Shown: piece by piece, positions 6,717-45,700 of the stretch
Position numbering within the stretch: the first letter of the stretch is position 1
How the letters are laid out: each line of letters opens with the position of its first letter
Assembly (NCBI RefSeq): GCF_037042905.1
Contig: NC_087251.1
Span: forward strand, 24,120,001 to 24,184,000
DNA: 64,000 bases
Direction: 5' to 3'
DNA from: Lytechinus pictus
Taxonomy: Eukaryota
The notes under the pieces: model-generated
Told to the model about the DNA's origin: nothing
What the model saw: the letters and a program-made list of their open reading frames with translations, nothing else
Database searches by the model: none
Position numbers and translations under genes: made by a program

Positions 6717-6741
6717 GGTGAAGATGTATTGCTTCTGTGAC

Positions 6742-8228: not shown

Positions 8229-8323
8229 CTATCGAAAAACAATAATATAAATTCAATTAATGTCACAGATTCACAATCAAATAGAAATAAAGTCTTTTTT
8301 TTTTCTCTTTCACTTCCAGTCTT

Positions 8324-10300
8324 CTAAAATCTCCTACAATGTCGGCAATCGGTGCAAGGCCGTCTGGATAACCCATCAGCATTCAAGTGGACACGTCCAG
8401 CACGATGCTCTAAGGTGAGTTGATACTGTGTTATCACTTCAAGCCATCTGGCTAACTGTCCTTCAGGATTCTTAAACTGTAATAGCCACCTAAGTGCACC
8501 ATGATCTGTTCTAACTTTCACTTGTTGTCCATACAGATAATGACGGAAATACTTGAGAAAGTTTACAACAGCTAATAGCTCCCTCCTTGTTACGCAGTAA
8601 TTCTGTTCTGCAGGATTTAGAGTCTTACTGGCATATGCAATAACCCTTTCCTTTCCCTCTTGCTCTTGTGAAAGTACTGCTCCTATTGCAAAATTGCTGG
8701 CGTCTGTATCAAGAATGAATCCAACATTCAGTCTTGGGTAGGCTAGAATTGGGGCGGTCGTTAACAGTCTCTTCATCATCTGAAAAGCCTCCTCGCATTC
8801 TGTTGTCCAGATAAAGGGCTCATCTTTCTTGGTTAGATTGGTAAGTGGTTTCACAACATCAGAGAATTTGAGTATGAATCTCCTGTAGTAGGATGCTAAT
8901 CCAAGGAAACTTCGCACCTCTGTCTGGTTGGTTGGTGTGGGCCATGATTTAACAGCCTCTATCTTATCCGGGTCAGTCTTCACTCCATCGGACGATACCA
9001 CATGTCCCAGATATAAGACCTCCTTCTGAAATAGATGACACTTCTTGGGTTTCAATTTCAGATTTGCTTCTCTTAGTCGCTGTAGAGTTATTCTCATTCT
9101 ATTGATCATCTCAGATACATTAGAGCCATAGACTATTATGTCATCTAGGTAGATTAAGAGTATCTTCCATTGCAGACCTCTGAACACATTTTCCATCAAC
9201 CTCTCAAAAGTAGATGGCGCATTGCAAAGTCCGAATGGCATGACCTCGAACTGGTATAATCCTCCTGGTACCACAAATGCTGATTTTTCTTTAGCGTCAT
9301 CATCTAGTGGAACTTGCCAGTAGCCTGAAGCTAAGTCTAGCGTGCAAAAGTAACTTGCACCTTCAAGAGAATCCAGTGATTCAGCAATGTTAGGTAATGG
9401 AAATGAATCTTTCACAGTATTCTGATTCAGGAGTCTGTAGTCTACGCAGAATCGTTTGGTTCCATCCTTCTTATCCACCAATACTATCGGGGAAGACCAG
9501 GCACTGGATGAAGGTGTGATGATTCCACGTGTAAGCATGTCTTCAATTTGCTGCTCTACTTCTTCCCTCTGTCCCATAGGGTGGCGTCTAGGTCTCTGCC
9601 TAATAGGGGCATTGCTTGTAGTATGGATACTGTGCTTCACCTTGTCAGTACATCCAATATCATGGTCGCCTTTTGAGAATACATCACCGAAATCTGTCAA
9701 TAGGGTAGCAACATCAGAATGGTGAGCATCTTCAATGTTCGGTTTAGCTCTCTCAAAGACATCTGTCAAATGTTCTGGTACCTCCTGTTTGATGACCATT
9801 GCCAATCTGCTACTTCTGTGATTTGTGCACGAAATAGTCTCTCCATGTAAGGTTACCATCATTCGCTCACAATCAATAGTTGCATTTGTTTCTTGTAAGA
9901 AGTCCATTCCAATAATTCCATCCACATCGATTCCAGCTATAATGACAGACACATCATACATCCTTCCAGAAATGCTCATTGGAATAACTGTCTCCCCAAA
10001 TACTTCAATTGGGGTTCCATTGGCTTGTCTCAGTTGAATTTCTGTCTCCTTCACACCTGGCATTCTATCATGGTATGCTTGACCCAAAATAGCTCCAGAC
10101 ACAATAGTTATTGTTGACCCAGTGTCTACCAACATGTATTTTGTTTCACTCCTTATATCTACTGGTATATACATAGCTTGGTTAACATCTCGAATAATGC
10201 AAATCAAGGGATTCGCTGCTTCTAGTTGAAAATCTAGTTCTGTGGACCTGTCTGGTCTGGCCGTCCCGTGGTCCTGCGAGTAGGCCTTCTGTCGTTTCCC
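8324..10300 (-). CDS. pol: pol: aspartic protease - reverse transcriptase - RNase H
   Basis: LVDTGS (PR); RFCVDYR, LDLASGYWQ, MPFGL, YLDD (RT); DTDAS, TRRELLA, RTDH, NADGLSR (RH). It overlaps the gag end in the -1 frame. Confidence 0.96.
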   Translation of the reverse strand, partial: GKRQKAYSQDHGTARPDRSTELDFQLEAANPLICIIRDVNQAMYIPVDIRSETKYMLVDTGSTITIVSGAILGQAYHDRMPGVKETEIQLRQANGTPIEVFGETVIPMSISGRMYDVSVIIAGIDVDGIIGMDFLQETNATIDCERMMVTLHGETISCTNHRSSRLAMVIKQEVPEHLTDVFERAKPNIEDAHHSDVATLLTDFGDVFSKGDHDIGCTDKVKHSIHTTSNAPIRQRPRRHPMGQREEVEQQIEDMLTRGIITPSSSAWSSPIVLVDKKDGTKRFCVDYRLLNQNTVKDSFPLPNIAESLDSLEGASYFCTLDLASGYWQVPLDDDAKEKSAFVVPGGLYQFEVMPFGLCNAPSTFERLMENVFRGLQWKILLIYLDDIIVYGSNVSEMINRMRITLQRLREANLKLKPKKCHLFQKEVLYLGHVVSSDGVKTDPDKIEAVKSWPTPTNQTEVRSFLGLASYYRRFILKFSDVVKPLTNLTKKDEPFIWTTECEEAFQMMKRLLTTAPILAYPRLNVGFILDTDASNFAIGAVLSQEQEGKERVIAYASKTLNPAEQNYCVTRRELLAVVNFLKYFRHYLYGQQVKVRTDHGALRWLLQFKNPEGQLARWLEVITQYQLTLEHRAGRVHLNADGLSRRPCTDCRHCRRF

Positions 10301-11268
10301 TGGTACGGTTTGCTGCAAACACGACTGATGTGTCCAGGCTCTCCACAGTTGAAGCACACAACTCGTGGTGGACCTCCATTCCTGTTCACACTCATCTGCT
10401 TCATCATTGATTTGATTTCTTGTAGGCTTGACTTTAATTCTTGTATCTCCTTCTTTACTCTCTCATCTGCAGGTGACGACTGCACAGCATCCCCTACTGC
10501 TCTGACGTGACGTGGCCTAATCCTCTCTCGTGACTTCTCCGTCTGTAGAAAAGACTCTGTCGTCAACGCAGCTGTAATCGCCTCTTCAAGCGTTCTAGGA
10601 TGAGCCCGGAAAATGGCAGCCCTGATTTCACCATCTTCAATTGCTTCTGAAAAGTGTCCACGAGCAAGCCTCTCTCTAGCATCGTTGCTCAGCTCCGGGT
10701 AGGCTAGGCAAGTCAAATCTCTAATTGCCTGACCTAATTCCTGTAGACTCTCCTTCGGCTGTCGACGCCTAGTCCTCAACTCCAGCAAGAAATTTTCAGC
10801 ATTCTCTCTTGGTCCAAATCGTCGCTCCAAATGGGAAGTGAGATTGGAGTACGTAAGTTCTTGTCCAACTGGAATATTATTCAAGACCTTCAGTGCAGCG
10901 CCTTGCAGTCTCGTGGCAAGATATTGTCCAGCCTCGACATCATCCCAATTATTCAATCTTCTGCAGACGTCAAAGTGTCGGCAATAGTCCGTCCATGGTA
11001 CCTTCCCAGCAAACTTATCCGGCAAAACGTCCCTAGCTCCAGATCCTCTCAGTTTCTTCGGGTCGGTCGTTTGGTGACTCCCAACATAGGAAGCATTATT
11101 TCGGAATTGAGTTGGCGTATAAACCTGGCGCCTCTCCGCAGGAATAGCATCTCCATAATTTGCCATGTCTACCGCTATCTCCGGATCCTGCTCATCTAAT
11201 ACCCAGCTCCTCTGGACTCCATTATTTCCAGGATCTCCTGCTGCCAACTCAGCACTTGGTTCCATCAT
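10234..11268 (-). CDS. gag: gag with CCHC zinc knuckle
   Basis: CFNCGEPGHISRVC knuckle; capsid-like PDKFAG...RRQPKESLQELG; first ATG at 11268 (MMEPS). Confidence 0.92.
   Translation of the reverse strand: MMEPSAELAAGDPGNNGVQRSWVLDEQDPEIAVDMANYGDAIPAERRQVYTPTQFRNNASYVGSHQTTDPKKLRGSGARDVLPDKFAGKVPWTDYCRHFDVCRRLNNWDDVEAGQYLATRLQGAALKVLNNIPVGQELTYSNLTSHLERRFGPRENAENFLLELRTRRRQPKESLQELGQAIRDLTCLAYPELSNDARERLARGHFSEAIEDGEIRAAIFRAHPRTLEEAITAALTTESFLQTEKSRERIRPRHVRAVGDAVQSSPADERVKKEIQELKSSLQEIKSMMKQMSVNRNGGPPRVVCFNCGEPGHISRVCSKPYQGNDRRPTRRTTGRPDQTGPQN
10240..10300 (-). promoter_or_regulatory. -1 ribosomal frameshift signal (G GGA AAC + predicted pseudoknot)
   Basis: Slippery heptamer 10300-10294 is in the correct gag phase; 7-nt spacer; stem ggcc-ta-ctcg / cggg-ac-ggcc with loop ggacc complementary to downstream ggtcc. 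Confidence 0.8.
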
Positions 11269-11712
11269 ACCGAGTGCTATAATGTTTAATATATTTGGAT
11301 GTATGTTTATTTTCTTGTGTTTAAGTATAAACATACATGTTTTAGATTGTGTCAAGCAAACGTACCCTTACATTGTAAAAGGAATAGATACATTGTAAAA
11401 GGAGTAGATTTCCTTATTATTCACAGTGATTAATTCACTGTCATGTCCATAGACATATAAATGCTCATTTTCCATATTCAATCTTAACTTATTTAATGCA
11501 CACTTGTAATAAGGAACTCAAAACACAACTTATTTATTATACATAGCTTAAACAATACATTCTTAAATATCTACTAGTACCGTACACAACTATACATAAT
11601 AATAGCAAAATTTTTATATACTTAATACAGATCATTCTACTACTTAGCAGACAAAAATGTACCGGTATTTTTTTTTTTTCTTTTAAAAGTGGAGGGGTTC
11701 TTTGAAAAGACC

Positions 11713-23810: not shown

Positions 23811-24251
23811 TTAACTGCTCTTCGTTTTGATGCTGATATTCCCAACATCTAGTCCTCTTTGATTCAACAAAATATAAATCAAAGCAGATCCAAATACAGT
23901 GGCGGGTATAGTATGAGATGTGGGTTCTCCTACCATCAAGAGTGTGTAGATGGCTCCAATCATGATGCCAAGAAGAGGCACGGCAGCGAACATCCTGTAA
24001 CCAGGTCTCCCGAATGCAAGTAGAGCTCCCAAAATCAATTCTGCAGCGCCAACCAGTGATATATACATAGTGGCAGTCTTGATGCCTAAGAAGTCCCGCA
24101 GTGGCAAAACTTTTATGAATTGTTCGAATCCATCATACATTTCAGGAAGTCCATGTCCTACCTGATCCTTGTCGAGGGGTAGGACTTTGACGAGTCCTGC
24201 GAGCATGAATAGCACTCCGAAGACGAAGGCGAGATAGTGACTGGTAGCCAT
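23811..24251 (-). CDS. TMEM35: TMEM35/NACHO-like (DoxX-like) 4-TM ER membrane protein, paralog 2, 146 aa
   Basis: GVLFMLAGLVKVLP, VGAAELILG, VGEP...VFG match the family pattern; C-terminal KTKSS (KxKxx ER retrieval). Confidence 0.8.
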   Translation of the reverse strand: MATSHYLAFVFGVLFMLAGLVKVLPLDKDQVGHGLPEMYDGFEQFIKVLPLRDFLGIKTATMYISLVGAAELILGALLAFGRPGYRMFAAVPLLGIMIGAIYTLLMVGEPTSHTIPATVFGSALIYILLNQRGLDVGNISIKTKSS

Positions 24252-26659
24252 TGTAACTTTGTTGCAATTAAAGGAGCTAAGCTATGAGAAGCAAAGTTCT
24301 CTGTCGATAATGATGATTCGTATGATTTGTTTATTTTATATATAACCTCAGGTGAAATATACTGCAATACGCCTCCTCTAGTCAGACTCAAAGGTCAAGA
24401 AGATAAGAATATACGTGATGAAATAATCGTAAACAATTCAGGGATGTTTCGTTTTATTACTGAGAAGTATAGAATGTAACCAACAGGCGTATAGTATACT
24501 GTGCACCTTAGTGCCTTGTTGTAGTACACACCTCAATACTGACCACCGGGACTGACCATTGTCCATGCATAGAGCTATTGGACCATCCCCCCACCTTAAA
24601 AAGGATCAATAAAAAGGGAAAGGGCCGAGTGAAATGAGATAGCTCTATGGTCCATGGTTGGTCAGGAACTCGATCGGTAATATTGTCCGCTTTTGTGTTG
24701 ACGGTACGGAAAGTTTGTGTCACTGATCTGTATTATTTCAGGTCAGTGATGAGGCCCGGGAATCATGAACACCAGTGGGGTCCAATAAATTTGTGAATTA
24801 TCCCAATAATCCCTGCAATAAGTCTACTGTGGCACTGCATTTCATCATTTTACTAAAAAATAATAACATTAAGCAGATTTTTCATTCATTATAATACAAC
24901 CATTTATATGTAAGTTTTATAGCTTTCCACTTATAAGGTTCAAAGTATTCCCCTCACGATTATTTCAGTCAGAAACTTGGAATCATATGTTTAGCCTTTT
25001 GTTTGTTTGCTTTGATAAACTAATTGATATTACTGAAATGGAAATCGTAATTCAAGGGTTCCAAATTATGGTTTTCTTTTTTTTTCTCTCTCTCTCTACC
25101 CATCTTTTTGCTATACTAGCAAAATGAGAATACGTACCCTGCATGCCTGCCTATGTTCTTTCTCGAAGGCCAATCTTACGCCCAGCAAAAAGTTTATTTG
25201 AATAAAAAATAAAACGCTGAAAAAGGGCATTTAAATTGGACTTGATGAGGTCCCATACACAAATCAACTTTTTTTTTTTTGGGGGGGGGGGTGGGGTAGG
25301 TGTACTTGACCTTTCACATTCAAGGCAAACGGGCGAAAGATGCACTTTGTTTTTTGATAAAGCGTAAATTGTATCAATATTTTGATATAAAATGAGTTTT
25401 TGTTATCTATAACCTGCTACAAGCAAGCCAATTCCTTATTTTCGGCCAATTTCGTTTTGTTTTCCTGATATGCCTATGCCGTGATCTCTCGATTTGTCTG
25501 CAACTTTCTTTTCTCTCTGTCGATCTCCCTCCCTCTCTCACTCCCTTTCCCCTCCCTCTCTCCCTTCAACTCCCTTTTTCATCACCACTCTCTTTCCCTC
25601 TTTTCACACATTCTCCCCACCCCCACTCTCCGTTCTGTCTCACCCCCCCCCTCCTCTAATTCGATCCTTTCACTCTTTCGCTGCTGCTACCTTCCTATAA
25701 TTATGTAGGCCTCATTCATGAATGTATAGCCTCACTAACAATTCCATGGTTTGACATAATTGACTCGGGAATATTGGAGAAGTATGTCTGTTTTTATTCA
25801 AAACAATTATCATGTGTTTGGATACATGCTCATGACCCACTTTTTAATATGCAAGTCATTTCTTTCTATCACTTTCCGATATTGCCCTTGAAACATAAAA
25901 GCCATTTAATTCTTAATCGAGTTGAATTTTCTTTTCCACATCCTCATTAAAAACATGTAAATATAAAGCATAACAAACAATTTAGTCAAGAAAATGCAAA
26001 AGAAACAATTTTTGAACAAACAAGAAGATTACAATGGAAATATGGTGGGATCATAACAAGTTTTGAAAAAAAAAACTTGTACACATGATCCCAATTTACA
26101 TAAACATAAAATTTACATAATAAATAATGGTTAGAGAATGATTTTAAAAGAAAAGGGGATTATTTTGTTAAGCTTAATAGAATTAATTGGTGTCCTATGA
26201 CCTTAAAGTGACATTTTGAGGTCAGTTAATACAAAACACATCTATTAAACGGTATAGTTTTTCATGGTCACAATGAAAAGAAAGTCCATGAAATAAAGTA
26301 AACTGAGCCATAAGAGCTATTTTATAATTATGTTTGTTTAAAAGTGCAGTACATAATCACAAACAATGTATGTATTCTGACTTAGTATTACTTAACCCAT
26401 TATTACACTCCTTCAATAATCGGCGTTTGTTCTTTCATGCTTTAATTGCAATCATTATTATTAACCTTTGCATAGATCTGGGCCATAATAAGGATATGCC
26501 TAATAATACAGAAGTAATTAAGATATCAAAGACAGAATATTCACCCAGTTGATACTCATTCAGCTGCTAATATTTATTCATTAATATCATTGTAACTTTT
26601 GGAGATTTATTCCTGAAATCATGATACTCTAGTCTAAGCACTTTTCGTGAAGATTGGAA

Positions 26660-27631: not shown

Positions 27632-28075
27632 TCAGTCACTTTTCGTCTTGACAGTCCTTGTATAGGTGGTATTTAGATCACGTCGATTTACAAGAATAAT
27701 CAAGAGTACAATACCAAGGAACAACGGAGGAGAAGCCATTGCGATGGGATCACCAATCTTCTGATGTGTCAGGAATGCTCCAATCATGAGTATAAGAAGA
27801 TAGAAGGCGCCAGTCACCCTCCAAAACGTGCGTCCGAATGCAAGCATGCTCCCGAATACAGTCTCGGCAAATCCGACAGCCGACCTGTAAATGGTCGTCG
27901 TGATCGTCACTCCGAAGATGTGGTGTACAGGGAGGACGGAGAGATAACGTTTGAACATCGCTTTCATCTCTGACTGGCTAAATCCATTGCCAAGCTCGAT
28001 CGGTGTGAGCTTCAGAAGACCTGCGAAGATGAATAAAAACCCGACCAGCACAGCGACGTAGTGAATGAGTCCCAT
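27632..28075 (-). CDS. TMEM35: TMEM35/NACHO-like 4-TM ER membrane protein, paralog 1, 147 aa
   Basis: GFLFIFAGLLKLTP, SEMKAMFKRY..VLP, VGFAETVFG, THQKIGDP resemble TMEM35A; Kozak accATGg; C-terminal KTKSD. Confidence 0.88.
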   Translation of the reverse strand: MGLIHYVAVLVGFLFIFAGLLKLTPIELGNGFSQSEMKAMFKRYLSVLPVHHIFGVTITTTIYRSAVGFAETVFGSMLAFGRTFWRVTGAFYLLILMIGAFLTHQKIGDPIAMASPPLFLGIVLLIILVNRRDLNTTYTRTVKTKSD

Positions 28076-29840
28076 GGTGATAATGTCCCCTTTCTACATA
28101 CACAACATGTGAATTCAAGATAGATGCATTCAACCTGTCTCTAGTCTTGTGTTATGACATGGAGACCGTTTTAGTCAGCCGCGCTTGAACAGATTTTTAT
28201 TAAGGTCTTATTCCCTAAATATTTATCTTAGATGTTCACAGGAAATCTTAGAAACATTGTTGATCACATTAGATCTAGACTTGTACACAAATTGCACTCC
28301 TTTAATCGTCGCAAACGTGAAACTGTGAACATCTAGGCAGTATATACAGCTCGAGTCGAGTGTTGATAAGGGGGGTTAAAGGTTATCCAGGCCAGGACAA
28401 AGAACGCACGCCACCGCGTCCGAAGCACTGGTAGTAGTTGTAGAGCGGAAGAAAACACAATAGGAGCTCCTATCGGGGCTCCGAGCTGATCTATGATAAT
28501 AGGGCTCCGGCCTTATTCTAGTATACTTCTTTTTCCTGTTTTCATTATATGGTATGATCATAAATATATCCATGGTATATTTGGGCTTATAACCATAAAA
28601 GAAAGGCAATTAATGAATATATGAAAAACCTTATACTTGTATAAGTATTAGTATTTATGCTCATGTAATGTTTATTACATAAAGCATGAATAAAGAAAAC
28701 AATCTGTCGAATGTGGGTTCAACAAGAGATTAGCCTTCTTACGTCGACCCCCCCCCCCCCCCACAATACACGAAGGGGGGGGGGTGATAAAAGTGAAGAG
28801 AAATGAAAGTTTAAATAAGCTCTTATTATGTATATTTAAGTTACGGGCTTCAAATTTAATAAGAAATAATCGAAAGGAATGTAAAAAGCTATTAACGGAG
28901 AATTGATTCTTTAGATGGTTTGAGATAGCATATCAAAGATGACGACGTTTGCAAAATATAGTATTCTTTGAAAAAAAATTCTGACAATATGTCAAAGCTT
29001 TGCAGATATTATATTTATGTGTTAAGGTCAGTTTTCAATGCAATTAGAGGAGATGAAAGGCCTTTTGGAACACATAAACATAGAACTCATTCAATTTATT
29101 TATCATGTTGGTATAATAATTCCAACTTCAATAAATAATATGAACAACCTTAGCAACCCATTGCATATGACACCAGTTCTACCTTTTTTAAGATTCATAG
29201 ATAAGAAATAGGTTGTCTTCGAAATGTTGTTTGGTGAATAAGATATATTTTACTTACCATGATTAGGCCTTTTAGACCCGCTTTGAACACTTCCTTTCTT
29301 ATCTGATGAAGATGAGTCTAATCATTATGTACCAGAAATATACCAAGCCTTTGTAACAGTACTTTCCTGGCTGGTTATCTTATTCATTTTTTTTCTTCTA
29401 ATTTAAATCAACATCTAAATGCCTCATATTCATAGACCATTCAATTTTTTAAGCTATAAATGCATCTCTCTCACATACACACACATAAGCTCAAAACCCC
29501 CCTCCCACACACTCTATGCTCCCCCCTTAGCCTCTGCCTCTCTTTCTCTGCCTTCCTCTCTCTTTTCCTCTCTTTCAACCTCTCTGTCTACCCTGTATGT
29601 ACCACTTCTTTGATCTTGGGTTTTTTTAAGTGACATGAACACTGTGCAGTAGCACTGGACAGTGAATGGTAAGGTTTTCTCTTAACTTGTTTGGCCGACT
29701 AATACGTGTAAATAAAGGGGAAAGGAAATACTTTCATCCTATGAAACGTACTTACTTTAATGTTATACATATGAGTATTACATCTTTACCTACAAATATA
29801 AAAGATGACAACAGATGATAATCAGACATTAAAGAAAATA

Positions 29841-31509
29841 CACTGTTGGTCATAAAGGTGGAATATTTTTTTTCACCAAATTTTCTCAGCGTAATTATTA
29901 CAACATGATTTGAATATGGCATTTATGGTGCATGATAACCACTTTGCTTTATAATTCTGCCTTTTACACACGTTTGACAGTGATATTTTACAAGTTTATG
30001 TCCTAAGCGATGGATGTCATGAGCATAGAACAACACTGACGACAATATACAGTAAATTAAAGGATCATGAGATATTTATTTTCAATCTCTCTCAGTTTTC
30101 CAGATGACTTTTTTTTGTGATTTCATGGACAAATTTGCATCAAACTTGAGTCATTGTTCTTACTCAGTCACTAGTATCGGGTATGTCCACCCCTGGCACG
30201 AACCAGCGCATGCAGACGTCGTTACATGCTGTCCACTAGCTTGTTGATGACGTCAACAGGCATAGCGTCCCATTCTTCCCTCAGAGCATCTGCCAACTCC
30301 TGCAGATTTTGAGGAATGACCTCTCTGTCGTTGATGGCTCGGCCTAGGGCATCCCATGCATGCTCTATGGGGTTCATATCCGGCGAACAAGCTGGCCATG
30401 GCAACTGTACGACGCCCTCTGCCTCCAGGAATTCCTTTACTGCAGCGGCCCTTTGCGGTCTAGCGTTGTCATCCTGCAGTCGGAAATTGTGCCCATACAC
30501 TCGTCTTGCATATGAAAGACAGTGATACTCCAAGATATCCCTGTAGGCGGCGGCGTTGACGTTTCAGTCCGGAACCACCATTGGCGTTTTCCCTCCATAA
30601 TGGATGCCGGCCCATATCATCACTGAGCCGCCTCCGACTTGAGTCGTCTCGTGGATACATTCATCACAAAGGTTTTCCCGGCTAATCGACGAACTCGTTG
30701 TCTCCCATCCTGTCGGTCAAGGATGAACCGGCTTTCGTCCGTGAAGACCACATGTTGCCAATGTCCTGGATGAAGCCTTCTGTGCTCCCTAGCCCAAAGA
30801 AGACGAGCTACTCTGAGGTGAACAGACAGGCGTGGACATTTGGTTAACCGTCGTGCTCGGTAACCATGTTGGAGCAATCTGCGATTAACGGTTGACCGGG
30901 AAACGTTAATCCCATGATATCTCCTCCACAAGCGACGGAGACGGCTCGTGGGCAATTTCCGGTTTCTGCGGCTGAAATTCAACAGTTGGCGATCATCTCT
31001 TCTTGTGGTCAATCTGGGACGTCCTGGAGATTTCCGTGGCTGCACATTCCCCGACTCACGTTGACGTTTCAGGATCTTAGAGACTGCACTCTGTGATATC
31101 CCTAGGACTTCTGCGGTATCAGTCTGCTTGTAGCCCTCCTGTCGCAGTGCTACCACTCTCTCGCGTGTTGCTGTTGCCGTTGGACCAGGCATAGTCCATG
31201 GAACGTCTCTACCGATTTTTATTTCAAACGGTACAAGGAACTCGAAAAAATGCAACCTTCTTATACACAGTGCTAAATCAGGGAAAGGGACAGAATATCA
31301 TATGCATAGGCTTTTATAGTCTACAACAAAATAATTTATTACGTAATCAAAATTTCTCATGTTATAATGTCACCTGTGTAATGGGGAAACGTTATCATGA
31401 TTATGTAATCACTCAATTACCATTTTGTCTACGCGTAGCCTTTCAAATACCAACAAAACTGTCGATTTTTATTCAAAAATATTTTATTCCACCTTTATGA
31501 CCAACAGTG
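29841..31509 (-). mobile_element. Tc1-family DNA transposon, 1,669 bp
   Basis: Perfect 25-bp TIR cactgttggtcataaaggtggaata; TA duplication at 29839-40 and 31510-11. Confidence 0.95.
30171..31192 (-). pseudogene. Tc1 DD34E transposase, frameshifted with a premature stop
   Basis: HTH, GRPR, FTDESRF, QDDNARP...SPDMNPIE (34 residues between D and E); reading frame broken around 30680-30540; TAA at 30222 precedes RRLHALVRARGGHTRY*. Confidence 0.92.
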
Positions 31510-33427: not shown

Positions 33428-33902
33428 CAGGGTTGGGCTAAATTACTTTCTTCAATTACAATTACAAGTACATAATTGAAGAAATGTTCAATTACAATTA
33501 CTTTTCATTTACAAATACAATTACCAATTACTTTTGTCAATTAAAACTTCAATTGCTTTCTAGAAAAGTCATAACAGACACCAATTTTTATTCTTAACAT
33601 ATTACCACCTATTTACGGAGAAACTGAAAAGATGAAGGTTTAGGTTAAAGAGCACGGATTCTCCCTGTTACTCTCTTTGATGCTGAAGCAGTTGACATGA
33701 AAAAGGCCAAGAAATTAAATCATAAATTAAGTAAATTTATTGTAAACTAATTGAATGTAATTAAAAGTAATTGAAGTAAATTACTTTTTTTTTTCAATTA
33801 CAATTACTTTCCCGTTCAAAACTTCAATTAAATAACAATTACTGGAAAAAATGTAATTAATTACATAATTGATCAACTACCTTGTAATTGAGCCCAACCC
33901 TG
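33428..33902. mobile_element. hAT-like MITE
   Basis: TIR cagggttgggctaaattac / gtaattgagcccaaccctg; 8-bp TSD ctcatttg / ctcaattg; many caattac subterminal repeats. Confidence 0.8.
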
Positions 33903-34068
33903 CTCAATTGTAAGAGAAAAAGAACAACAGAATTGATATATCATGATAACAACATGAGTCAACAATGGTATTGAATGCTGGATTTTGCAAAATATATAAT
34001 GCTGAACTTCACCTTTAAAAATGTTGACAGGTGAACCATTTGTAAATTGTCCATTTAAAGTAATGATA

Positions 34069-37000
34069 TCAGTTGATGTCTTCTACAGTATGTCCAATCC
34101 TCAACACGACATTAGCAATGTCCACAGCCACACAAAATGAATTGAATCTCACAGCAAAGGAGTCCAAGATCAGGCCAGTCCTGTCTCTATCTAGACCCAT
34201 GGAAGGATTCTGACCATACATCCCATTATGCAATGCAGTCCGATCTGTGCTAGTGGGATCATCATCATTCCTAGTTTCAGTTTTCTCTCCATAAGCAGTG
34301 TCAATTGTAGTCATGCTGGCATCTTTGGTAGCTTGCTCTTCCATCCTGTACTCTCCATACTTGAGATTTCCAACAATGCCCCAAGAGCCTTGCCTCATCT
34401 GATTGGCTAGCTTCATGCCACAGCCACACCCACCCATCCTCTGCAGCCAATCAGGATCCTCCATGGACTCCCGTGGGATGGACCAGCAGTGATGAGATGT
34501 GGAGTCTGTCACAATATGGCTGGTATCTGTACAAGAAGTTGCCATGGTGACTTCCTCTAAGCTGGATGCAAAGGTATCCGATAATTTCAGAAACTGGCTT
34601 TTGGAGCACCCTGCATCTCTCCATGTGCTTTCATCCATGTGCATTACCTGTACATTGAATATGTAATACAGAACATGCATAACAATAAAAAAGATAATCA
34701 TAAGAATTTTCAGTAACTACTTAAAATTGGTTAAAAGCAATGTAAATAACCTCTAAAATAGTTCAAAAGCTATTGTGGAATGTCTTATAGATGGTAACAT
34801 TCTTATTCTGAATAAGACGAAGTAGTGAACATAAAAAGTATTCATATATAAAAGTAATTTACATAATGCACCATCATCAAGTAAGAAACATCATAGATGT
34901 ATTATTTTTGCAGGCATCTGTCATCTTAATTTTACCACAATTAATTAATAATCATGAGAAATCACATGTGAAGGGTGAGAGGGATTGGATTCTGACCTGT
35001 TCTCTTATATGATGAGCCAGGATAACATGGAGACAGCCTGCTCCAGGGACAGTGGTGGGATCACTCAAGGTCAAGGCCAGGGTATGATGAGCTACATTAC
35101 AAACATGCTGCTTGTACAGGGGAAAAAAAAGCAATATACTTGACTGTTTAAGTATTATGTGTAAGCAAAGATAAAGTTCTACAACACTGTAAATGGAATT
35201 GAACTATTCAAGATATAAAGAATAGGCACACTGAATGAGTGCTGAACAATGTAATTGCAGTCCTATCTTTTCGCACTGAGCATTCAAAAGTGATTTAGGA
35301 TTCGCTGGACAGGATGTATAAAGACAATATTTAGATCCATTTGATGTAAATGTATATATACCTACTGATACAAGAATGTGTCATTCTAATCATGTATGTA
35401 TAATCACCTAGCACAAAACTACAATGAACTGGCACAAGTTATCATCTACAACGAGTTCCTCAACTAACCATTTGGTCTAATTGCCACAAATCCCAATTTA
35501 TAATTTTGTCTAATTTCCAATTCTAAAGGCTCTACTCATTTTGTCTAATATCCATTAGGTCCAACATCACTTTGTAAAGTGGTGCTCAAAGTTAGTGAAC
35601 CCCACCAGAAAATCAACATATTTAAAGTGTTTGATTTCTACCATGTTTTAGATATTTAATTGTGAAGCCTGGTGATACAATATTCCATTCAATAAATTTT
35701 GTTTCTCTGCCGAACATTGTAGTGTTGTCAACATTTAACATGCACTCAGTATGAAGGAGTGCATTGTGTGGTGGGGTTCACTAACTTTTGAGCACAACTG
35801 TATATATGATTAGATGAATTAATAATGAACTGAATTCTCATTTGACAAAGTGCAAAAGAGTAAGTAAAGGAAGTGGGTATTAGACCATCTGGGCATTGGA
35901 CTAAACAACAGTTAGCACCAGTGAGTAAACCAAGTGAAGTCTGGACCAAACAATGGTGTAAGACAATCTGAGGTTTAGACTATCTACGAGAAGAACAAGT
36001 GGTTGCAAGCCCATGAATATAGCACGAATTGACATTTACCTTCATTTCCTCCAGACTCTGCTCGGTGTGATTGCATAATACCAGTGTACAAAGTGATGAA
36101 GAATGGTTCTGGAGATGAAGATAGCTCCTATCAAACATGACAAGATGTTGGATATCCGACACCTTACCTAAACTGGACGATGGGACTGCGCAGCTGAAAG
36201 AACCAAGAACTTCTGCACCTAAAAATGAGAAATGATGAAGACATTGCGTACAGTCAACTTTTAGCTTAGACAAGTAAAACTAATCGGTAAGTCAATTCAT
36301 GGTGGCTGTTAAGCTCCTCTGGGCTACAATTGATCTGACACTTCTTCAATCAATATCAAAGACCCTTTACAAATAATAAATCATATCCATAAAGTAAATT
36401 GAACCTATATTCTTTGCTTCAAGAAACTGAACATGAAGACAATTTTGAATTTTGCAGAGACCACCCAGTTCCAAATACAAAGGTTTAAAATGTGAAATCT
36501 GTCCAAAAAATTCTATATTTTATTTAGTATGTTTAAAACTATGACAACATTTAATGCAAGGAATACTCAATCATTTAATTTCCCAATTCAATGATTGAAT
36601 AATCTATTTAATCAGTATCATTAACCCAGCATTGCTGCAGGCAAAGAAGTGTCAGTATTTACCAGTGACCTGCTGTACTGCTCCAATATGACGGATGGAC
36701 AGACGATCCATAGCTAACATCCCCTTCTGTCTGAGGTAGCTTTTGATGGATGGGTGTATGACCTTTTGACATGCTATTAATCCAACTCTCATGTCCACAA
36801 GCTGATCAAACAGATCCCTCATGGCTTTAAGATTACTAGCTTCAGCTGTCACTCCTGGGGCCAGCTCAAAACTGAAATGACAAATATAAACATTTATAAA
36901 CATATTGCTTGTACAAGCTGTGTCCTATTGTTCATTTTTCAGGTCCGAAGGTGTATACATAGGTAAGACAATGCAGGCGTGAAACATAGGTGTAATAACT

Positions 37001-38346
37001 TGCACTTTTGAATATCACATAAAGGAAACAATTTAGAGTACTAGAGAATTATTGTGCTTTTGATCTTGGCTGCATGAAACCTGAGAATTATACTTAGCCT
37101 AATGTTTTTGTAATGAATGCAGTAAAATTAATCTCTAACAATTTTCATTCTTCAAAAACTCAATGCATTTGCCTGTAATATTCCAGTAAAAAACACATTA
37201 TGTATTCCAAACATTTAACCTTTACATACATCTAATATAGAGATTAGTGAAATATGGATACAGTTCACAACTAAATCTTTCAGTAGCTCTGGATGTTTTG
37301 TCATTTTTAGTATCTGGTAAACTTAATTAATTTAAATTTGATGACTTCATGACATATCAGAGCTTTTGTCTAAAAGATATCAACAAAGGGCAACATTCCA
37401 TGTGATACGCCTTTCATCCTTGACATACAAAATATACAAACAAAGACAAAAAGCACACACTAGAATAAACCAACTCTACAGGGTATGTGTTTAGTTAAAC
37501 TGCTCTAACAATGTCTTACCGAACATCAGTGTATTCTTCACTATCCCCTGACAGAGATATGTTGAACAGCACCACTCTAACACACCCAGCATCAGGTCCA
37601 GTCTCTATCCTAGGCACTTGTAAATCCTTAGTAAAGAAAGCAGGAATATCTGGAGCTTCTATCAATATACCTTCTACAATGTGTGACTCTGAAGGCATCT
37701 CTCCCTCTACTCCGATGAGTTGGACCTCAGGAATGGTCAGTGGCTGACCGTGGTCTACACTGGGAATGGAGGATATGAAGGATTGTACGATTAATCTTGC
37801 TACCAGGCGAAGGTCCCGCTTGACCAGGCCGCACCCTGGCTTTGAAGCAATCACTGGGCGAACAAGAGACAAGAGCGTCTCCATGGAAGCCACATTGACA
37901 GGAATCCTACAGCTATCGCTGGACATCATAGTATTCTTGCATATGTCTTGCATTATTTCATTGACAGCTACACACATCATAGGATGTAGTCCTGTCTCCC
38001 AGCAACCTTGGATGAGTGAGCATGCCAGAAGAGCAGCATGAAGACCTCCATCTGAATACACTTTCAGATGTCCCTCCACTGCTGTAGATATCATCTTCAG
38101 CAGTGGTTTGGATAAGGACAGGGTTGACAGTAGTCTCTGGCTGGAGGAAGTCAGGGTAACATGACCTCCACACTGGTTCTGAATCATTTTCAAGTGCCCT
38201 TGCGGTCCGTAGCAAGATTTGATGATGGATTTGAAGGCTTGGAGAGCACGGATGTTGGATGGATGTTGCTGGTCATAAGAGCTGATGCGAGATTGTTCCT
38301 TTGGAGTTTGATAGGCCATACTTGTTCCTGGAGATGCAGCACACAT
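34069..38346 (-). CDS. MKKS: McKusick-Kaufman / Bardet-Biedl syndrome 6 chaperonin-like protein (~634 aa, 5 coding exons)
   Basis: Exons 38346-37520, 36871-36663, 36218-36040, 35107-34997, 34647-34069 join in frame with GT-AG. Motifs: SCYGPQGHLK, TSSSQRLL, YSDGGL, CQKVIHP, PGAGC, HHCW, CGCG, ILDSF. Confidence 0.93.
35576..35802. mobile_element. Tc1/mariner-like MITE (second copy ~60930-61164)
   Basis: agtggtgctcaaagttagtgaacccc / ggggttcactaacttttgagcacaactgta. Confidence 0.7.
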
Positions 38347-38663
38347 CTGGAAAAATAAAATAAAACACTTCTTAATTCAAGGCTAACTCTGATACAAGAT
38401 CTGCACTCATTTAACTAGTTGGCAGCCATCTTCAACATGATATCATTGTCATCCTTTGAATGTAAAATAAATTCAATGTAGGAAGCTGAGACAGTTAGTC
38501 TTATTTTCCAAATAAATCAAATCACCTGAAATTAGGATTAGAATGTGAACACTGACTGATATATCAAAATAAACAGCAACAGATATAATTTCTACATTTT
38601 GATAGCTGATTTGCCCAATAGTAAGTACAATTTCATAATATCTTTATAGAACTCAAAAAAGAA

Positions 38664-39629
38664 ACAAGTGGAATGCCTCTGGCCGTCTCACCTGCATCAC
38701 GCGATTCAATATAGCAGCAGTGCTGATTTTGAAAACTACTATAACTCGCACAAGATGTTCAGTGATACTTGGTTACTCTTATTTCCACGTTTTATGAACT
38801 AGACCAATACACTTATAGAGATATGATGGCAATTCAACAAATACCCCCAACGTGGCCAAAGTTCTTTGACCTTACATGACCTTTGAACTTGATCATGTGA
38901 CCTGAAACTCGCACAGGATGTTCAGTGATACTTGATTACTATTATGTCCAAGTTTTATGAACTAGACCAACACACTTTCAAATTTATGGCTGTAATTCAA
39001 CAAATACCCCAATTTGGCCAAAGTTCATTGACCCTAAATGACCTTTGACCTTGATCATGTGACCTGAAACTTGCACAGGATGTTCAGTAATACTTGATTA
39101 CTATTATGTCCAAGTTTCATGAATCAGATCCATAAACTTTCAAAGTTATGATGGTAATTCAACAGATACCCCCAATTCGGCCAAAGTTCATTGACCCTAA
39201 ATGACCTTTGACCTTGGTCATGTGATGTGAAACTCATGCAGGATGTTCAGTGATACTTGATTAACCTTATGTATAAGTTTCATGAACTAGGTCCATATAT
39301 TTTCTAAGTTATGATGACATTTCAAAAACTTAACCTTAGGTTAAGATTTTGATGTTGATTCCCCCAACATGGTCTAAGTTCATTGACCCTAAATGACCTT
39401 TGACCTTGGTCATGTGACATGAAACTCAGGCAGGATGTTCAGTAATACTTGATTAACCTTATGGCCAAGTTTCATGAACTAGGTCCATATACTTTCTAAG
39501 TTATGCTGTCATTTCAAAAACTTAACCTCAGGTTAAGATTTGATGTTGACGCCGCCGTCGCCGCCGCCGCCGTCGCCGTCGGAAAAGCGGCGCCTATAGT
39601 CTCACTCTGCTATGCAGGTGAGACAAAAA
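38664..39629 (-). mobile_element. Helentron-associated (HINE/pearl-type) non-autonomous element
   Basis: Subterminal inverted repeats gtctcacctgcat (38685) / atgcaggtgagac (39612); internal ~180-bp tandem units rich in tgacctttgacctt; (gcc)n microsatellite; A/T-run flanks with no TSD seen. Confidence 0.75.
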
Positions 39630-39692
39630 ATATCTTTCCACAAAACATAGAAATTGATTGCAATAAAATTTTACCTTGATCAGCTAGATGAT

Positions 39693-39863
39693 TTACTTCT
39701 CATCTTTCCCAATAACAAGTACAGTATCGTGTTCTTTTCTATCCTCAATCCTAGCTGAAGTTTTTGCTATCTTCTGAACATTGTAGATCAAAAGGTGGGT
39801 CGTGACCAAAGCAATTCCAACACTCATGAACTTGTGTTCCATTATAATCTTTTTGAGACCCAT
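39693..39863 (-). CDS. uMKKS2-like microprotein, 56 aa, single TM (uORF on its own exon 39958-39675)
   Basis: accATGg; MGLKKIIMEHKFMSVGIALVTTHLLIYNVQKIAKTSARIE... resembles human uMKKS2 as recalled (..GISFIGVHLGTYFLQRSAKQSV..); exon bounded by ttttttgcag| and aag|gtaaaa. Confidence 0.8.
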   Translation of the reverse strand: MGLKKIIMEHKFMSVGIALVTTHLLIYNVQKIAKTSARIEDRKEHDTVLVIGKDEK

Positions 39864-41039
39864 GGTAATAATATGTCCTTCGGAGATATTAAATTTCAAA
39901 AGTTTTTGGTATGTCCTAAATTCTCCACTGATTGCACAGGTATTGGTACTCCAGTGATCTGCAAAAAACAAAAGACAAGAAGTATACATGAACATCAGTC
40001 AGTTTTTTTAATTTGTTTTAAAAAGAAGACCAAAATAGACATTTATAGCCAAAGTCCGCAGTCACTTTGAAGAGCATCTACTCAAATCCTTAACTATCAA
40101 CCTTGTTCACTTGGACAACTCTATAACTAGCCACATCTTTCTCCTGAATAGACCCAGAAACCTTAGTAATTTTCTATTATTTCATTATTTCAGTTTGTAG
40201 ACACAAATTCAAATAGGCAGTAATTTTGTTATCATCCAGAACCCCACGAAAAAAATAATATACAGCAATAAACTCCTTTATCTATTCAACTGATGTCCTA
40301 CTATATTACTCTTATAGCTCAACATCTTACTACAAGGATGGAAAATGTTTCCTGCAGCATTCAGATAAACAAGGTTAGATAGTACTTTATTATTCCTGGG
40401 TCCTAATCCATGCAAAATCTTGATTTTATCTTGATTGTGTAGTCTTATAATATATCCCTACAAGAAGGAATAATTTCTGCTTATCTTTTCAACATTCACA
40501 CGGACAAAATTGACAAAGGTACTGGGATCAAAGTAAGCTTCCGAACATTCCTGTCATTAAGTTTAAATTAAAAGTCACAATACATTTTCAACTGTTTTTA
40601 AAAAGGATATCATCAAGACACTCGATAAAGTATGTACCGGTATGCATATTGCAGGATGCCTACTGTGTGATTTAGCTCATAATTGGAGGACACTCCCCTT
40701 TGCTGACTGTCAAACCTAAAAATACAATACTGAACACATGGGCTCTGCATGCATTATATTCTTTTACATATCATTGCTTTACATTAATATTAAATTAATT
40801 TAACAATAATAATGAAGAAATACATCCTCCAAGCAAAATTAATGAGAAAAAAAATTATCAGTGAACTGTCAAATATTGAAAAAAAAATTAAAATAAAAAT
40901 TACTACTTCCCTTCTCCTTATGAAATACATCCATCTTAAATGGTGAAAATGGGTTCCAAAAATATTGCATTGCTGTTATATATCATTACTTTAAAATGGA
41001 TAAATTTCACATTTTCTTACTACAGAACTATACTTACGA

Positions 41040-41252
41040 CTAATTGGACTTCTCAGCTGGTGATTTCAAAGCCTTTGATTTGATATAAGCTGGAAGACGA
41101 TCTGAAATTTTCTTCTTTGAGTGTCCAGCTTCTTTATTGAAGACAGGATCATTGGCAATGTGGAACCATCCAACGTGAATGAGTGAAATACTTATTAATC
41201 CTACAAAGAGTACCCTGTTACGAACAAAAAAGTTCTTCTTTGGTGGATTCAT
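41040..41252 (-). CDS. uMKKS1-like microprotein, 70 aa, single TM (uORF on its own exon 41299-41038)
   Basis: atcATG; NFFVRNRVLFVGLISISLIHVGWFHIANDPVFN resembles human uMKKS1 as recalled (NLWRDYKVLVVMVPLVGLIHLGWYRIKSSPVFQ); exon bounded by ttttatttcag| and |gtaagt. Confidence 0.85.
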   Translation of the reverse strand: MNPPKKNFFVRNRVLFVGLISISLIHVGWFHIANDPVFNKEAGHSKKKISDRLPAYIKSKALKSPAEKSN

Positions 41253-42679
41253 GATGCAGGTAACGTTTTCTTTCTCTTTCAGAACTCAAATGCAACAAAC
41301 TGAAATAAAAGGGTAAAATAAATCAAGATTAGTTTATAACTTTAGATGGAACCTCAGTTCTTCATCTTATTCAGACCAGGAGTACATCAAGTTCAAGTTA
41401 CCAGAAGTCAGAAGAAACAAGTCTTGAATGACTCTGCAATAGAAAAAAAATATATCTTCAATTCATCATTCGTTAACCAAGTCTAAGACAAATCATGTCC
41501 TGATAAAATGAGATTGAGTCCTCCTACTTAAAGCAGCACTCATATCAGGTGGATCTGATTTCTGGGGAGCGTTTCATGAAAGGACTTGTGGGACGTTTTA
41601 TCCCATTTTCATTACAGATCGAGCATCTTAAACACATAGGAGTAATGCCGAAAATTTGTTCACAAATTATTATTACCTCATATTAAAGCCTCTTTATTTA
41701 CTAAGTCGTATTTCATCCGACAGTTACCAAAGAAACAGTGCTTCTCAGCACAATCAAGGAAAGTTGTCAGGTCTGACAACCCAAACATGGTCGGGTGTGC
41801 GAGGTTATTTTAGCTATCTAAATTCTAACCTCGCACTAGTGTGAGTGCCCATGTCCTCCACCAAAATAAGCCGAATCCAATTCCCATCCACTAACTAAGT
41901 CATGAAAGGAGTACTCTACAGAATCAAATTAAGGGCTGAATAAGCACACTATACCCAGCAATCCACAAATTGGCAAAAAGCCTACCTACGATATCATTAG
42001 AGTGATATGGTGAAAATTTCTATAATAAATATTTTAGAACAGTTTCTGCTGTCAATTGCTCATGTTTGAGTGGTTAAACTAGCAGTGGGTGTCAGGTAAA
42101 AGCTTTATGCTGCATTATTGTTGTATTGCATGATTGGCATGGTTTGAATCCAGCACATGATACATTTTTTTCAGTTGTAAATTGATAACAATTCAGGCAA
42201 TGCCAATGCCATGCCAATGGTGAATTTATTCAATAAGACAATTATTGTGACATATAGGCCTATTTATTTGACAATGACCGACCATGTCGAAAACCGACAA
42301 AATATCATGGACTTGCAGTGGTTGCACTTGATCTTGTGGATATGGCAGCTGAGAGTAAAAGCCTCTCCTAAAAGCCATATTGTTGGCAGAATTAGGAATA
42401 ACAAATAAATGAATGTTACATCATCCGTCCATTTAATAAGTGAGGTAGCCCCCCCCCCCCCTTCTCTCTCTCCGCCTTACTTACTGGTCACAAGAATATC
42501 AATATGTGGGACCGAACAAAATGTGAAATTGGTATGGCAACTTGGAAGATCCGATGGGACCAATACTACTTACCGTAGATTGAAATCATAACATGATTGT
42601 GATATATTTAAGAATCCATATTATGTTCCTATTCGATTGGTAGAAATATAAATTATTTAGATCTAGATCTTGTACTTGC

Positions 42680-42798
42680 CTTTTCAGAAGTTATCAGCTG
42701 ACAGCGTCGACATCGGCCGCATCGCGCATAAATTTTGGTTACACAAGATCGCTTTGTCATGTCGCCCTCTTATGTTGAGTTAATATGAAGTTGACAAA
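42680..42798. promoter_or_regulatory. Compact bidirectional promoter shared by the MKKS transcript (-) and TIMM50 (+)
   Basis: CpG-rich patch. Minus-strand donors aag|gcaagt (42680) and acg|gtaagt (~42574) lie 120-225 bp from the TIMM50 ATG. A YY1-like aaaatggc overlaps the ATG. Confidence 0.6.
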
Positions 42799-45700
42799 AT
42801 GGCAGCGCTCAGTGGAACGTGCGTGAGGCAATGGTTACGATTTTTGGGTACGAATGCAGCAAGAACAAGGACTGCGGATCATAGCACTAACTGTAGAACT
42901 TTACCGTCTTCAAATAATCATGCCAGGCTATTAGTTCGCCCATTATCAGTGACTACATTGCTCAGAAATGAGGAAAAACAGCCTAATCAGCCGACGGAAA
43001 GTGCGATGCCATTGGTGGCAATGCTCCGCGAGGCCGAGGAGAAGGCGAAACGAGAAACAGAGGATGACCGGAAGAAGAAGGAGGAGCGAAAAAAGAGAAC
43101 GGCACGCATCCAGAAGTGGGCAATGCGCATCACGGGGGGAATGCTTGTTGGAGCATCATTATTGACTGTTTATGAATTAGGTATCCCGACCTTCACCTTG
43201 TTCTTTTTAATCTTTACTTGTCTTTTGAGTCTACTCTAGTCTTAGTACTATTCCTAACCAGTTAGTTATAACATATGTTGATGGGGTGTCCAAACTTCGC
43301 GCCCTTTTTCAAAAATATTCATCAGGCACAAAAATTTTTCCACAAAATATTCATAATTTATACAAAACCAATTCAAGAAATAGTTACCACATTGACAGCA
43401 AGATCGTAAACTATAAAATCATGGACGAAAATGTAAAGTAGGTCAAGGGGTTTCGCCGGTATCGCGATCTCAAATTTATATTCCGATCGGCGAATGTGCG
43501 CTGTGCTGGAAAACCGTTCAGAAAAAGTGTGACCTTATTTCGCGGACCAAAGTTTTTGTGGAAATTAAAAAAAAAACTCAAGCTCAAAAAGTGACATATT
43601 TATATCAGATTGATGGCAAAATGCCATAGAATCGGTTAGTACCACATTTAACTCACACTTTTGATGATTTCTGCTTGCAAAATGGTGATATCGTGATGCT
43701 TGTTGAGAATATCAGATTTCTTCAAAACGGGCGCTAACGGTGACAAATTTGCCGATCTTTTGCCAATATTTTCATGAATACTGAACTCATCCTAAAGAAA
43801 CTTACACCGAAGGGTAATTTTAGGTCGCTTTTCACGTTGATGATGTCAGATTTTAAGGATATTGGCTAGTTTTTTAGGTAATGACCGTCCGCGATGTTTG
43901 GACTCACTGCCATACTAGATCCGCTGTTTCGGAGGAGTTTTTCAACATTTTCTGATTTTTTTGACGGATGACGGCCATTTGGCCGTAGTAATGGTGGAGC
44001 TCCACTGATGCCTTAATTACAGCTTTAATGGAGAAAAGGGTGCGATTTTGCACCCTCCTGTATTACTCCTAAATTTTGCTTTTTGATGGGGGAAAAAAGG
44101 AAGAAATGATTAAAGATAAATTTATATTAAATACAATGAATCAGCTTACCTCCTTTCCGAAAAATATGCTGGAAAATAGCGAATTTTGATAAAAAACAAA
44201 TCAGGATAATATTGGTGAAGGTTTGAGGAAAAACCAACAAAGAATAAACAACTTAGATCTAGGCCTATTTGATTTGTGTCTTTTGTGACGTCATATGCAA
44301 GCAGCTTTCCTACATATCATCAATGAGTTGTCATTTTAAATGGATATCTCAGACCAATATTCATTTTTTTTTTCTGCTGTTTTTATAACAAAGTTCTTTT
44401 TTTCAGGGTGAACTTCCCTTTGAGTAAAGTAAAGTAAGCTAGATGCTATCTGATATGGGTGACCATATTAATTATTATAACACACATTTTTTATCAATTA
44501 GATATTGAAGGTGATGGTGTTATTCAATTTTTAAAAATAATAAGAAGTTCAGTACCACCTAGACATTGGCCAAAGTCAATATGGGTGACAATCTTACATA
44601 TTGATTGGAGACTTCCTTTGCAAAAGAATTCAACTTGAAGAAACAACAACAACCACTAAACAAGGCAATTTTGTTTCACTGAGGTCAGAAGACTCGGAGC
44701 TTCTCAGTTGCTCATTTATTTTATGTGTGGATGATAGGTTCACTTCTTGTCATATTGTTGTTTGCTGCCAGGGTATTCGCTTTGAAGCAAATATGAACCC
44801 CCCCCCCCCAAAAAAAAAATGGTCTCTAAATATTTCTTGTGCAGTCATGTTCTAAATTGTATCGAACATATTGAATGAATGATGTGAATGGTCTCTCAAA
44901 CGATTCCACTTTTATAAACAATAACACCTTCGTCTTTATTGTTATAATTCTTTTCTAACAGTTTTGTACAGTAGGCGAAAGGTCCATGGGTATTTATTTT
45001 CTAAATGTAACAGAAATTTCATATTCAAGCCAATTTTTGAACTGTTTTTGTTTTGTTTAGTTGAGACTTCATGCACAATCACCACACCCCCCCCCCCCAA
45101 AGAAAAAAGAATATGGATATTAAGGATGATAGTTCAGTTCTTATGCTGTTTTGCCTTTTTCAGAATTGAAAAGCAATGACATATTAATGATAAAACTTTA
45201 TTATATTGACACATTTGCTCAATGCACTTTGATGCTATATAGAAACATGACCTATGCAAAATATTTACCTTACCCCTTTTTTTATTTGTCGCTGCCCAAT
45301 ATATATTCAATTAAGATACAAATGTTAATTTCAAGTCACTCTTTACATTTCATTCTGGTAAGTTAAGGGGCTTAGCAGGTTAACTCTTTTTTTTTTAAGT
45401 CAAACCTTGCAACATTTTACTATATTGTCAACATTTAATGTGACTGTTTGGTAGATGAGGCATTATATATCCTTTTTTAGTTTGTTGCTTAATTCACTGA
45501 AGGGATTATTGCCTCATCAGATGAAAAGGAAAGATGCTGCTGGACTGGGTTTAGTTATTCATGTTTACCCATTTGATATAAATAGGATATGAATGAGAAC
45601 AGAAACAGATTATATTTTTCAGGGCATGTACATGGTAAAATAAATTTCTATAGAACCACCCAATAATAATCACAGTACAGTCAAAGATATTTGTTAATAT

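Follow-up and report, generated by a model that had tools for sequence, protein, structure and literature searches.

The leader of the human MKKS messenger RNA (mRNA) is one of the standard examples of how a single eukaryotic mRNA can code for two or more proteins. It comprises two upstream open reading frames (uORFs; ORF, open reading frame): uMKKS1 (63 amino acids (aa), Q9HB66, LOC128706665, 'micro-MKKS63') and uMKKS2 (50 aa, V9GZ13) (PMC11837024). The same source attributes these ORFs to Akimoto et al. 2013. Their products are found at mitochondrial membranes and MKKS translation is repressed (PMC11837024, PMC7066179), a repression that has been assigned to the uORFs in human reporter assays (PMC11837024, PMC7530721). 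The product of human LOC128706665 is named 'alternative protein MKKS' in UniProt and has been linked computationally to complex IV (bioRxiv 10.1101/2024.10.01.615885). In a 2026 study, the 63-aa uMKKS1 and not MKKS is presented as the main protein of the human locus, and its loss or knockout lowers respiration and oxidative phosphorylation in human cells (PMC13577902). The small leader ORFs are described as conserved across mammals (PMC11837024). This work concerns a candidate counterpart of this locus in a stretch of 64,000 nucleotides (nt) of Lytechinus pictus DNA (assembly GCF_037042905.1, contig NC_087251.1, positions 24,120,001 to 24,184,000), hereafter the window, in which two small ORFs, uORF1 and uORF2, precede a longer ORF that encodes a chaperonin-like protein (the main ORF).

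The locus in the window and human MKKS have a similar layout, with two small ORFs in the same order ahead of a chaperonin-like ORF on one mRNA. The sizes are close (63 vs 70 aa for the first ORF and 50 vs 56 aa for the second), and in the human and window peptides alike a single hydrophobic stretch comes after a basic N-terminus. The core RVL.V ... LIH.GW..I...PVF is common to human uMKKS1 and uORF1, and the residues GI.....HL..Y..Q..AK.S, compared by eye, occur at the same distances from Met1 in human uMKKS2 and uORF2. Extra small upstream AUGs in the window are comparable to human uMKKS0 (PMC11837024). The nearest named relative of uORF1 is a lamprey homologue of 67 aa with the same core. 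The tails differ: the C-terminal tail of human uMKKS1 is unrelated to that of uORF1, the lamprey tail is Gly/Pro-rich and not basic, and a P.Y.K.K motif present in the tails of uORF1 and seven relatives without names is absent from the lamprey proteins and, by eye, from the human peptide. Short leader-only isoforms have been described for human MKKS (PMC11837024, PMC13577902), whereas read depth in the window shows no excess of the uORF exons alone. The uORF proteins of MIEF1 and SLC35A4, which are also mitochondrial microproteins, are named alongside MKKS (PMC7530721, bioRxiv 10.1101/2024.11.14.623419). There, a conserved small protein likewise comes from the 5' leader, the main ORF has a different job and its translation is lowered, but each locus has one such leader ORF, compared with two in series here.

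Results

Exon chain and RNA evidence

The transcript, both small ORFs and the main ORF are located on the minus strand, and all positions are given in window coordinates (Table 1). For RNA evidence, raw reads of two RNA-seq runs were aligned over 33500-43500 together with two sets of contigs. One contig of 2354 nt (public run X1) aligns in seven pieces (35007-35107, 36040-36216, 36661-36871, 37520-38346, 39675-39958, 41038-41299 and 42680-43171), with no mismatches in six of them and three in the last (42680-43171), and lacks six introns. As this contig is intron-free and each small ORF is single-copy in its own genome (the uORF1 and uORF2 peptides each have one match in the 811.7-Mb assembly), it represents spliced RNA and not a retrocopy. 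A contig from a second organism (X5; organism B, ~3-5% diverged) joins 39682-39884, in which it has six differences from the window, to 38150-38348, and thereby the uORF2 exon onto the main exon. The joints between the later main-ORF exons have CT..AC ends (GT..AG on the minus strand) in four of four runs.

Table 1. Exons and open reading frames of the transcript, in window coordinates
Feature	Position	Strand	Details
Exon 1, non-coding	42680..42850	-	Joint 41299/42680 in X1 contig; 5' end approximate
Exon 2, carries uORF1	41038..41299	-	Exact borders in X1 contig, 0 mismatches; acceptor ...TTTCAG, donor GTAAGT
uORF1, 70 aa + stop	41040..41252	-	ATG 41252, stop TAG 41042-41040, inside exon 2
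Exon 3, carries uORF2	39675..39958	-	Exact borders in X1 contig; acceptor ...TTGCAG, donor GTAAAA
uORF2, 56 aa + stop	39693..39863	-	ATG 39863, stop TAA 39695-39693, inside exon 3; candidate uMKKS2 counterpart
Exon 4, first coding exon of main ORF (276 aa)	37520..38346	-	Acceptor ...TTCCAG; ATG is the first exon bases
Further main-ORF coding exons	36871-36661, 36216-36040, 35107-34995, 34645-34069	-	CT..AC joints

In the stranded run (X19), all reads in the three bins of the main exon and in two of three bins of the uORF exons have the first mate on the plus strand (0 opposite), and the remaining uORF-exon bin (41182-41515) has a value of 6.63 for this orientation against 0.19 for the opposite one. 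First mates on the plus strand are expected for minus-strand RNA in the usual stranded libraries. When depth in this run is scaled to the exonic share of the bins, the uORF exons reach ~19, ~19 and ~14, compared with ~16-17 for the main exon, and depth is 0 in the wholly intronic bins 40180-40847. The matching scaled depths and the empty intronic bins indicate that, in that sample, the uORF exons belong to the transcript as a rule and are not rare variants. Exon chain, strand and similar depth over the three coding regions are direct observations, and they support one spliced RNA that both small-ORF exons and the chaperonin ORF share. A first-pass annotation, made from the letters of the window, had listed two complete small ORFs of 70 and 56 aa, one per exon, and had proposed that these exons can be spliced in series onto the main ATG. 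Both ORFs are present as it described them, and the serial splicing is observed in the X1 contig and the stranded reads.

Layout of the leader

In the modelled mRNA, the uORF1 start is located 228 nt from the 5' end, with A at both -3 and +4. The uORF2 start follows 97 nt past the uORF1 stop in the context ACCATGG, and 18 nt separate the uORF2 stop from the main ATG, where -3 is A and +4 is T. Nine codons on, at 38319, the main ORF has another in-frame ATG, where -3 is A and +4 is G. The donor of exon 1 is GC (GCAAGT, at 42679), so that intron 1 is a GC-AG intron, as confirmed by the spliced contig. Exon 1 itself contains up to four small ATGs, the number depending on the true start site, including that of a 33-codon ORF that runs from 42760 and ends 26 nt before the uORF1 ATG.

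At the 5' border, minus-strand-type reads dominate in X19 bin 42518-42851 (1.77 vs 0.03) and are nearly gone in bin 42852-43185 (0.09 vs 9.63), which places the flip in strandedness at ~42852. A head-to-head neighbour gene is located at 42784-43239 on the plus strand. Its first exon has an open frame of 151 aa in which codon 6 is Met, and for which no convincing Pfam family was detected (best Rv2743c at 0.0012, below cut-off). Because this exon begins within a few tens of bases of leader exon 1, the two genes have a bidirectional promoter region in common.

Relation of uORF1 to uMKKS1

The first 12 residues of uORF1 have a net charge of +3, and its hydropathy (Kyte-Doolittle, 19-residue window) reaches a maximum of 1.99 at residues 14-32. 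By this measure uORF1 is a predicted small single-pass membrane protein. When exon 2 was shuffled 5000 times by mononucleotide, 9 of the shuffled sequences contained a complete ATG-to-stop ORF as long as uORF1. Pfam returned sub-threshold noise only for uORF1 and uORF2 (SWIB 0.11, DUF7790 0.13).

A word-index search with uORF1 retrieved two relatives without names (76% and 68% identity). The profile of these three sequences, run exhaustively with HMMER against 1.84 billion representatives, yielded seven proteins at E (expect value) ≤ 1e-3. Three of them are small (62-66 aa, E 1e-12 to 6.7e-11); the remaining four are long proteins (323-902 aa) and were left out of the uORF1 family. A six-sequence profile, searched against 5.8 billion proteins, gave eight matches, the sole named one being a lamprey 'uncharacterized LOC128706665 homolog' (Lethenteron reissneri XP_061429831.1, 67 aa, profile E 2.1e-3 over 5.8 billion sequences). 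The 90% cluster of this protein comprises three lamprey species, including Lampetra fluviatilis (XP_078734883.1). BLASTP aligns uORF1 with the lamprey protein at 10/33 identical residues (30%, pairwise E 1e-6), and hhalign of the uORF1 profile against it gives a probability of 97.6% (E 3.9e-12, 33 columns); identity to the lamprey proteins over the full alignment is 24%. As a control, the uORF1 profile was compared with uORF2, for which hhalign gives a probability of 0.24%, showing that the profile does not merely match any small membrane peptide. In pattern searches of metagenome contigs with uORF1, none of 118 matches was confirmed.

The uORF1 peptide is kept in at least seven further sequences without names, at 42-77% identity. 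An alignment of ten sequences has nine invariant columns, namely M1, R11, R13, V14, L15, H26, G28, W29 and P54. None of nine uORF1 relatives matches any Pfam family at E ≤ 0.1. Compared by eye and without gaps, residues 7-38 of uORF1 and 5-36 of human uMKKS1 (peptide from PMC7066179 Supplementary Data 1) are identical at 13 of 32 positions, including the LIH.GW and PVF motifs. The first-pass annotation had named such motifs of the two human peptides, and they are indeed present in the peptides printed in that supplement. On these comparisons the kinship of uORF1 with vertebrate uMKKS1 (micro-MKKS63) is of orthologue grade, and the sequence relationship is a direct observation. The kinship that had been proposed there is thereby upheld by the lamprey profile match, by hhalign and by the human residues counted by eye.

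Relation of uORF2 to uMKKS2

uORF2 sits between uORF1 and the main start codon in the same mRNA. Its first 12 residues have a net charge of +2, and its hydropathy maximum is 1.34 (residues 12-30, same scale and window). A basic N-terminus, a membrane helix and a fair Kozak context had been claimed for both peptides; the membrane stretch of uORF2 is the weaker one. Mononucleotide shuffling of exon 3 produced an ATG-to-stop ORF as long as uORF2 in 92 of 5000 cases.

Aligned without gaps from Met1 and without offset, uORF2 and human uMKKS2 are identical by eye at 11 of the first 40 positions (M1, I7, G16, I17, H23, L24, Y27, Q30, A33, K34 and S36), with no matches in the last 10 positions. When Met1 and position 40 are excluded, 10 of 38 positions are identical, compared with 3.7 expected. 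With match rates derived manually from how often each residue occurs in three regions, we estimate the Poisson-binomial tail for at least 10/38 matches at 3.0e-3; flat match rates of 0.068-0.12 give 1.7e-4 to 1.2e-2. Taking the match by eye together with position, order and size, uORF2 is likely homologous to uMKKS2. Of the conserved tricistronic layout that the first-pass annotation had put forward, the transcript and uORF1 are thus borne out, and the part played by uORF2 is plausible.

The possibility that uORF1 and uORF2 are old duplicates of each other was considered separately and is ruled out by the hhalign probability given above and by BLASTP, which finds no alignment between them at E ≤ 100.

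The main ORF

Starting at the ATG at 38346, the main ORF is spliced over five exons into one open frame of 634 aa that ends at 34069, and the 3' untranslated region extends at least to 33795. Two cuts in this exon chain could be placed 2 nt further right, which leaves the mRNA unchanged. The product of exon 4 matches Pfam PF00118 (Cpn60_TCP1) at residues 39-271 (E 1.5e-26, 93.6 bits), and all 30 of the 30 main-ORF matches in the Atlas fall in clusters that carry PF00118 and are named generically TCP-1/cpn60. Among solved structures, the matches are thermosomes and CCT subunits (E 2.8e-11 to 4e-4), with an ancestral group II chaperonin on top (2.8e-11). Solved CCT subunits are matched at no better than E 1e-7 to 4e-4. 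From a true CCT subunit we would expect far stronger matches, and on this basis the main ORF is not one of the eight canonical CCT subunits. These family and structure matches mark it as a chaperonin-like protein of group II that has diverged and is of the BBS kind. Its leader, which carries the uMKKS1 relative, leads us to infer an identity as MKKS and not as BBS10 or BBS12.

Surroundings of the locus

The intron that separates the uORF2 exon from the main exon contains a high-copy repeat at 38660-39630, with tandem units of 163 and 192 nt (38743-39549). RNA read depths over this repeat run into the thousands, and in the stranded run nearly all reads have one orientation (e.g. 3436 vs 17), which indicates that some place in the genome gives rise to abundant transcripts of this repeat family from one strand. 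Two further intronic segments, 41516-41849 and 35504-35837, have very deep reads in both orientations with many loose ends and joints, and look like dispersed repeats.

Elsewhere in the window, open frames of 377, 712, 504 and 335 aa on the minus strand at 5646-11367 look by eye like a long terminal repeat retrotransposon, in the order gag, protease/reverse transcriptase, integrase and a Glu/Lys-rich, zinc-finger-like ORF. Adjoining frames of 225 and 113 aa at 30222-31297 (minus strand) resemble by eye a Tc1/mariner-type transposase split by a frame break. Two paralogous frames of ~155 aa at 23811-24281 and 27632-28093 (minus strand) show weak similarity to DoxX / DoxX_2 (E 4e-5 to 8e-5, around the cut-offs) and are probably tandem genes for small multi-pass membrane proteins. 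Rfam gave no matches over the whole window.

Outside the window, stop-free frames of 1133 and 1165 aa in the same genome (G000:C3:72769425-72772298 and 72814938-72817820; L007-L009) each contain three phosphagen-kinase domains. Among solved structures they match a two-domain 'arginine kinase' (4rf6) best and creatine kinases next. Three phosphagen kinase stretches, including the intronless three-domain ORFs, were checked against solved structures and fall in the creatine-kinase lineage. In the same assembly MHC class I gave no match and the C1-set 4 weak ones, which speaks against a jawed vertebrate, although these searches had prokaryotic genomes as controls. Three myosin exons matched unconventional myosins only, COX1 is absent from the assembly, and chitin synthase gave no match.

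Discussion

The reading that we favour, and consider probable, is that the window contains an MKKS-type locus whose single spliced mRNA carries three successive coding regions, in which uORF1 corresponds to uMKKS1 and uORF2 probably to uMKKS2. Several observations weigh against it. The X1 contig that links all the exons is a short-read assembly and not a single molecule, and its last piece enters the head-to-head neighbour gene, which shows that contigs can bridge separate transcripts. The leader joints 38346/39675 and 39958/41038 are absent among the 15 of 617 read-level joints listed. With regard to uORF2, the hydrophobic stretch is weak, the likeness to uMKKS2 was counted by eye and not scored by a program, and its p value becomes ~0.06 once 21 offsets are allowed. 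Searches for relatives of uORF2 yielded no candidate in the word index, a best score of 0.84 in the Atlas, which is below the useful range, and 332 pattern matches in the metagenome scan, 0 of them confirmed; the exhaustive HMMER search was run with the uORF1 profile and not with uORF2. The evidence on the main ORF is at the family level, from Pfam, the Atlas and solved structures. Finally, up to four AUGs in exon 1 ahead of uORF1 would complicate simple scanning.

The points on uORF2 bear on an alternative in which only uORF1 is an ancient protein gene. uORF2 would then be either a regulatory uORF specific to a lineage or an ORF that arose by chance, and its likeness to uMKKS2 a coincidence between short basic-hydrophobic-basic peptides. 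The empty searches, the low hydropathy, the offset-corrected p value and the number of exon 3 shuffles with an equally long ORF would all suit such an origin. It has to be set against an excess of identities over expectation at zero offset, a length close to the human one, an optimal start context, and a place and order that are those of the human locus, between a uMKKS1 relative and the main AUG. On balance, we regard a coincidental uORF2 as rather unlikely.

It is very unlikely, in our estimation, that the small ORFs act only as translational brakes on the chaperonin ORF and that their peptides have no function of their own. Such a role is consistent with the repression of MKKS by the human uORFs in the reporter assays cited above and with the short distance between the uORF2 stop and the main AUG, but the uORF1 peptide is kept in ten aligned sequences, down to 24% identity and with nine invariant columns, and human uMKKS1 is reported as the main product of its locus, the loss of which lowers respiration (PMC13577902). 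A different challenge concerns the main ORF, which could be an orthologue not of MKKS/BBS6 but of BBS10 or BBS12, or a lineage-specific CCT offshoot, in which case the linkage to MKKS would not be conserved as such. The family-level nature of the matches (Pfam Cpn60_TCP1, TCP-1/cpn60 clusters in the Atlas and PDB matches at E 1e-11 to 1e-4) leaves room for this. Yet the main ORF shares its transcript with a relative of the peptide characteristic of the vertebrate MKKS leader and follows it there, and the small ORFs lie upstream of its start codon in the 5' leader, as in human (PMC11837024), and we consider another identity of the main ORF unlikely.

If the locus is indeed of the MKKS type, scanning ribosomes would, by analogy with the human locus, initiate at both upstream AUGs, and two small single-pass membrane proteins would result that act at mitochondria. 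Given the optimal start of uORF2 and the 18-nt gap behind it, few ribosomes would be expected to reach the chaperonin ORF, which would then be translated by leaky scanning or, rarely, by reinitiation. The leader would in this way both encode proteins and throttle chaperonin synthesis.

On the favoured reading, the last ancestor that this animal has in common with vertebrates would already have had the three-ORF arrangement. As the layout here is the same as that of the human MKKS locus, the arrangement of two microproteins plus MKKS is probably far older than vertebrates. A more far-reaching idea, which we put forward tentatively and with more doubt than confidence, is that uMKKS1-uMKKS2-MKKS is an ancestral animal 'operon' that has stayed intact for more than half a billion years through the tied output of the chaperonin and the microproteins. 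The output of the ciliary chaperonin would be mechanically tied, by a common flow of ribosomes on the leader, to that of two mitochondrial membrane microproteins that support respiration, and the small ORFs, far from being accessories of MKKS, would rank as the primary and ancient genes at this locus.

The available text of the literature on the MKKS uORFs contains no statement of conservation beyond vertebrates that we could find; the taxonomic survey in PMC7530721 (Fig. 2a, Table S2) may include invertebrates. All nine non-lamprey relatives of uORF1 are without a name in the databases searched, which, together with their absence from Pfam, shows that such genes go unnamed. The same leader, spliced and expressed outside vertebrates, would, if the favoured reading is true, date the arrangement before vertebrates and argue that not only the peptides but also their linkage is maintained by selection. 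A non-vertebrate system would also become available for testing why one mRNA serves both a mitochondrial microprotein and a ciliary chaperonin.

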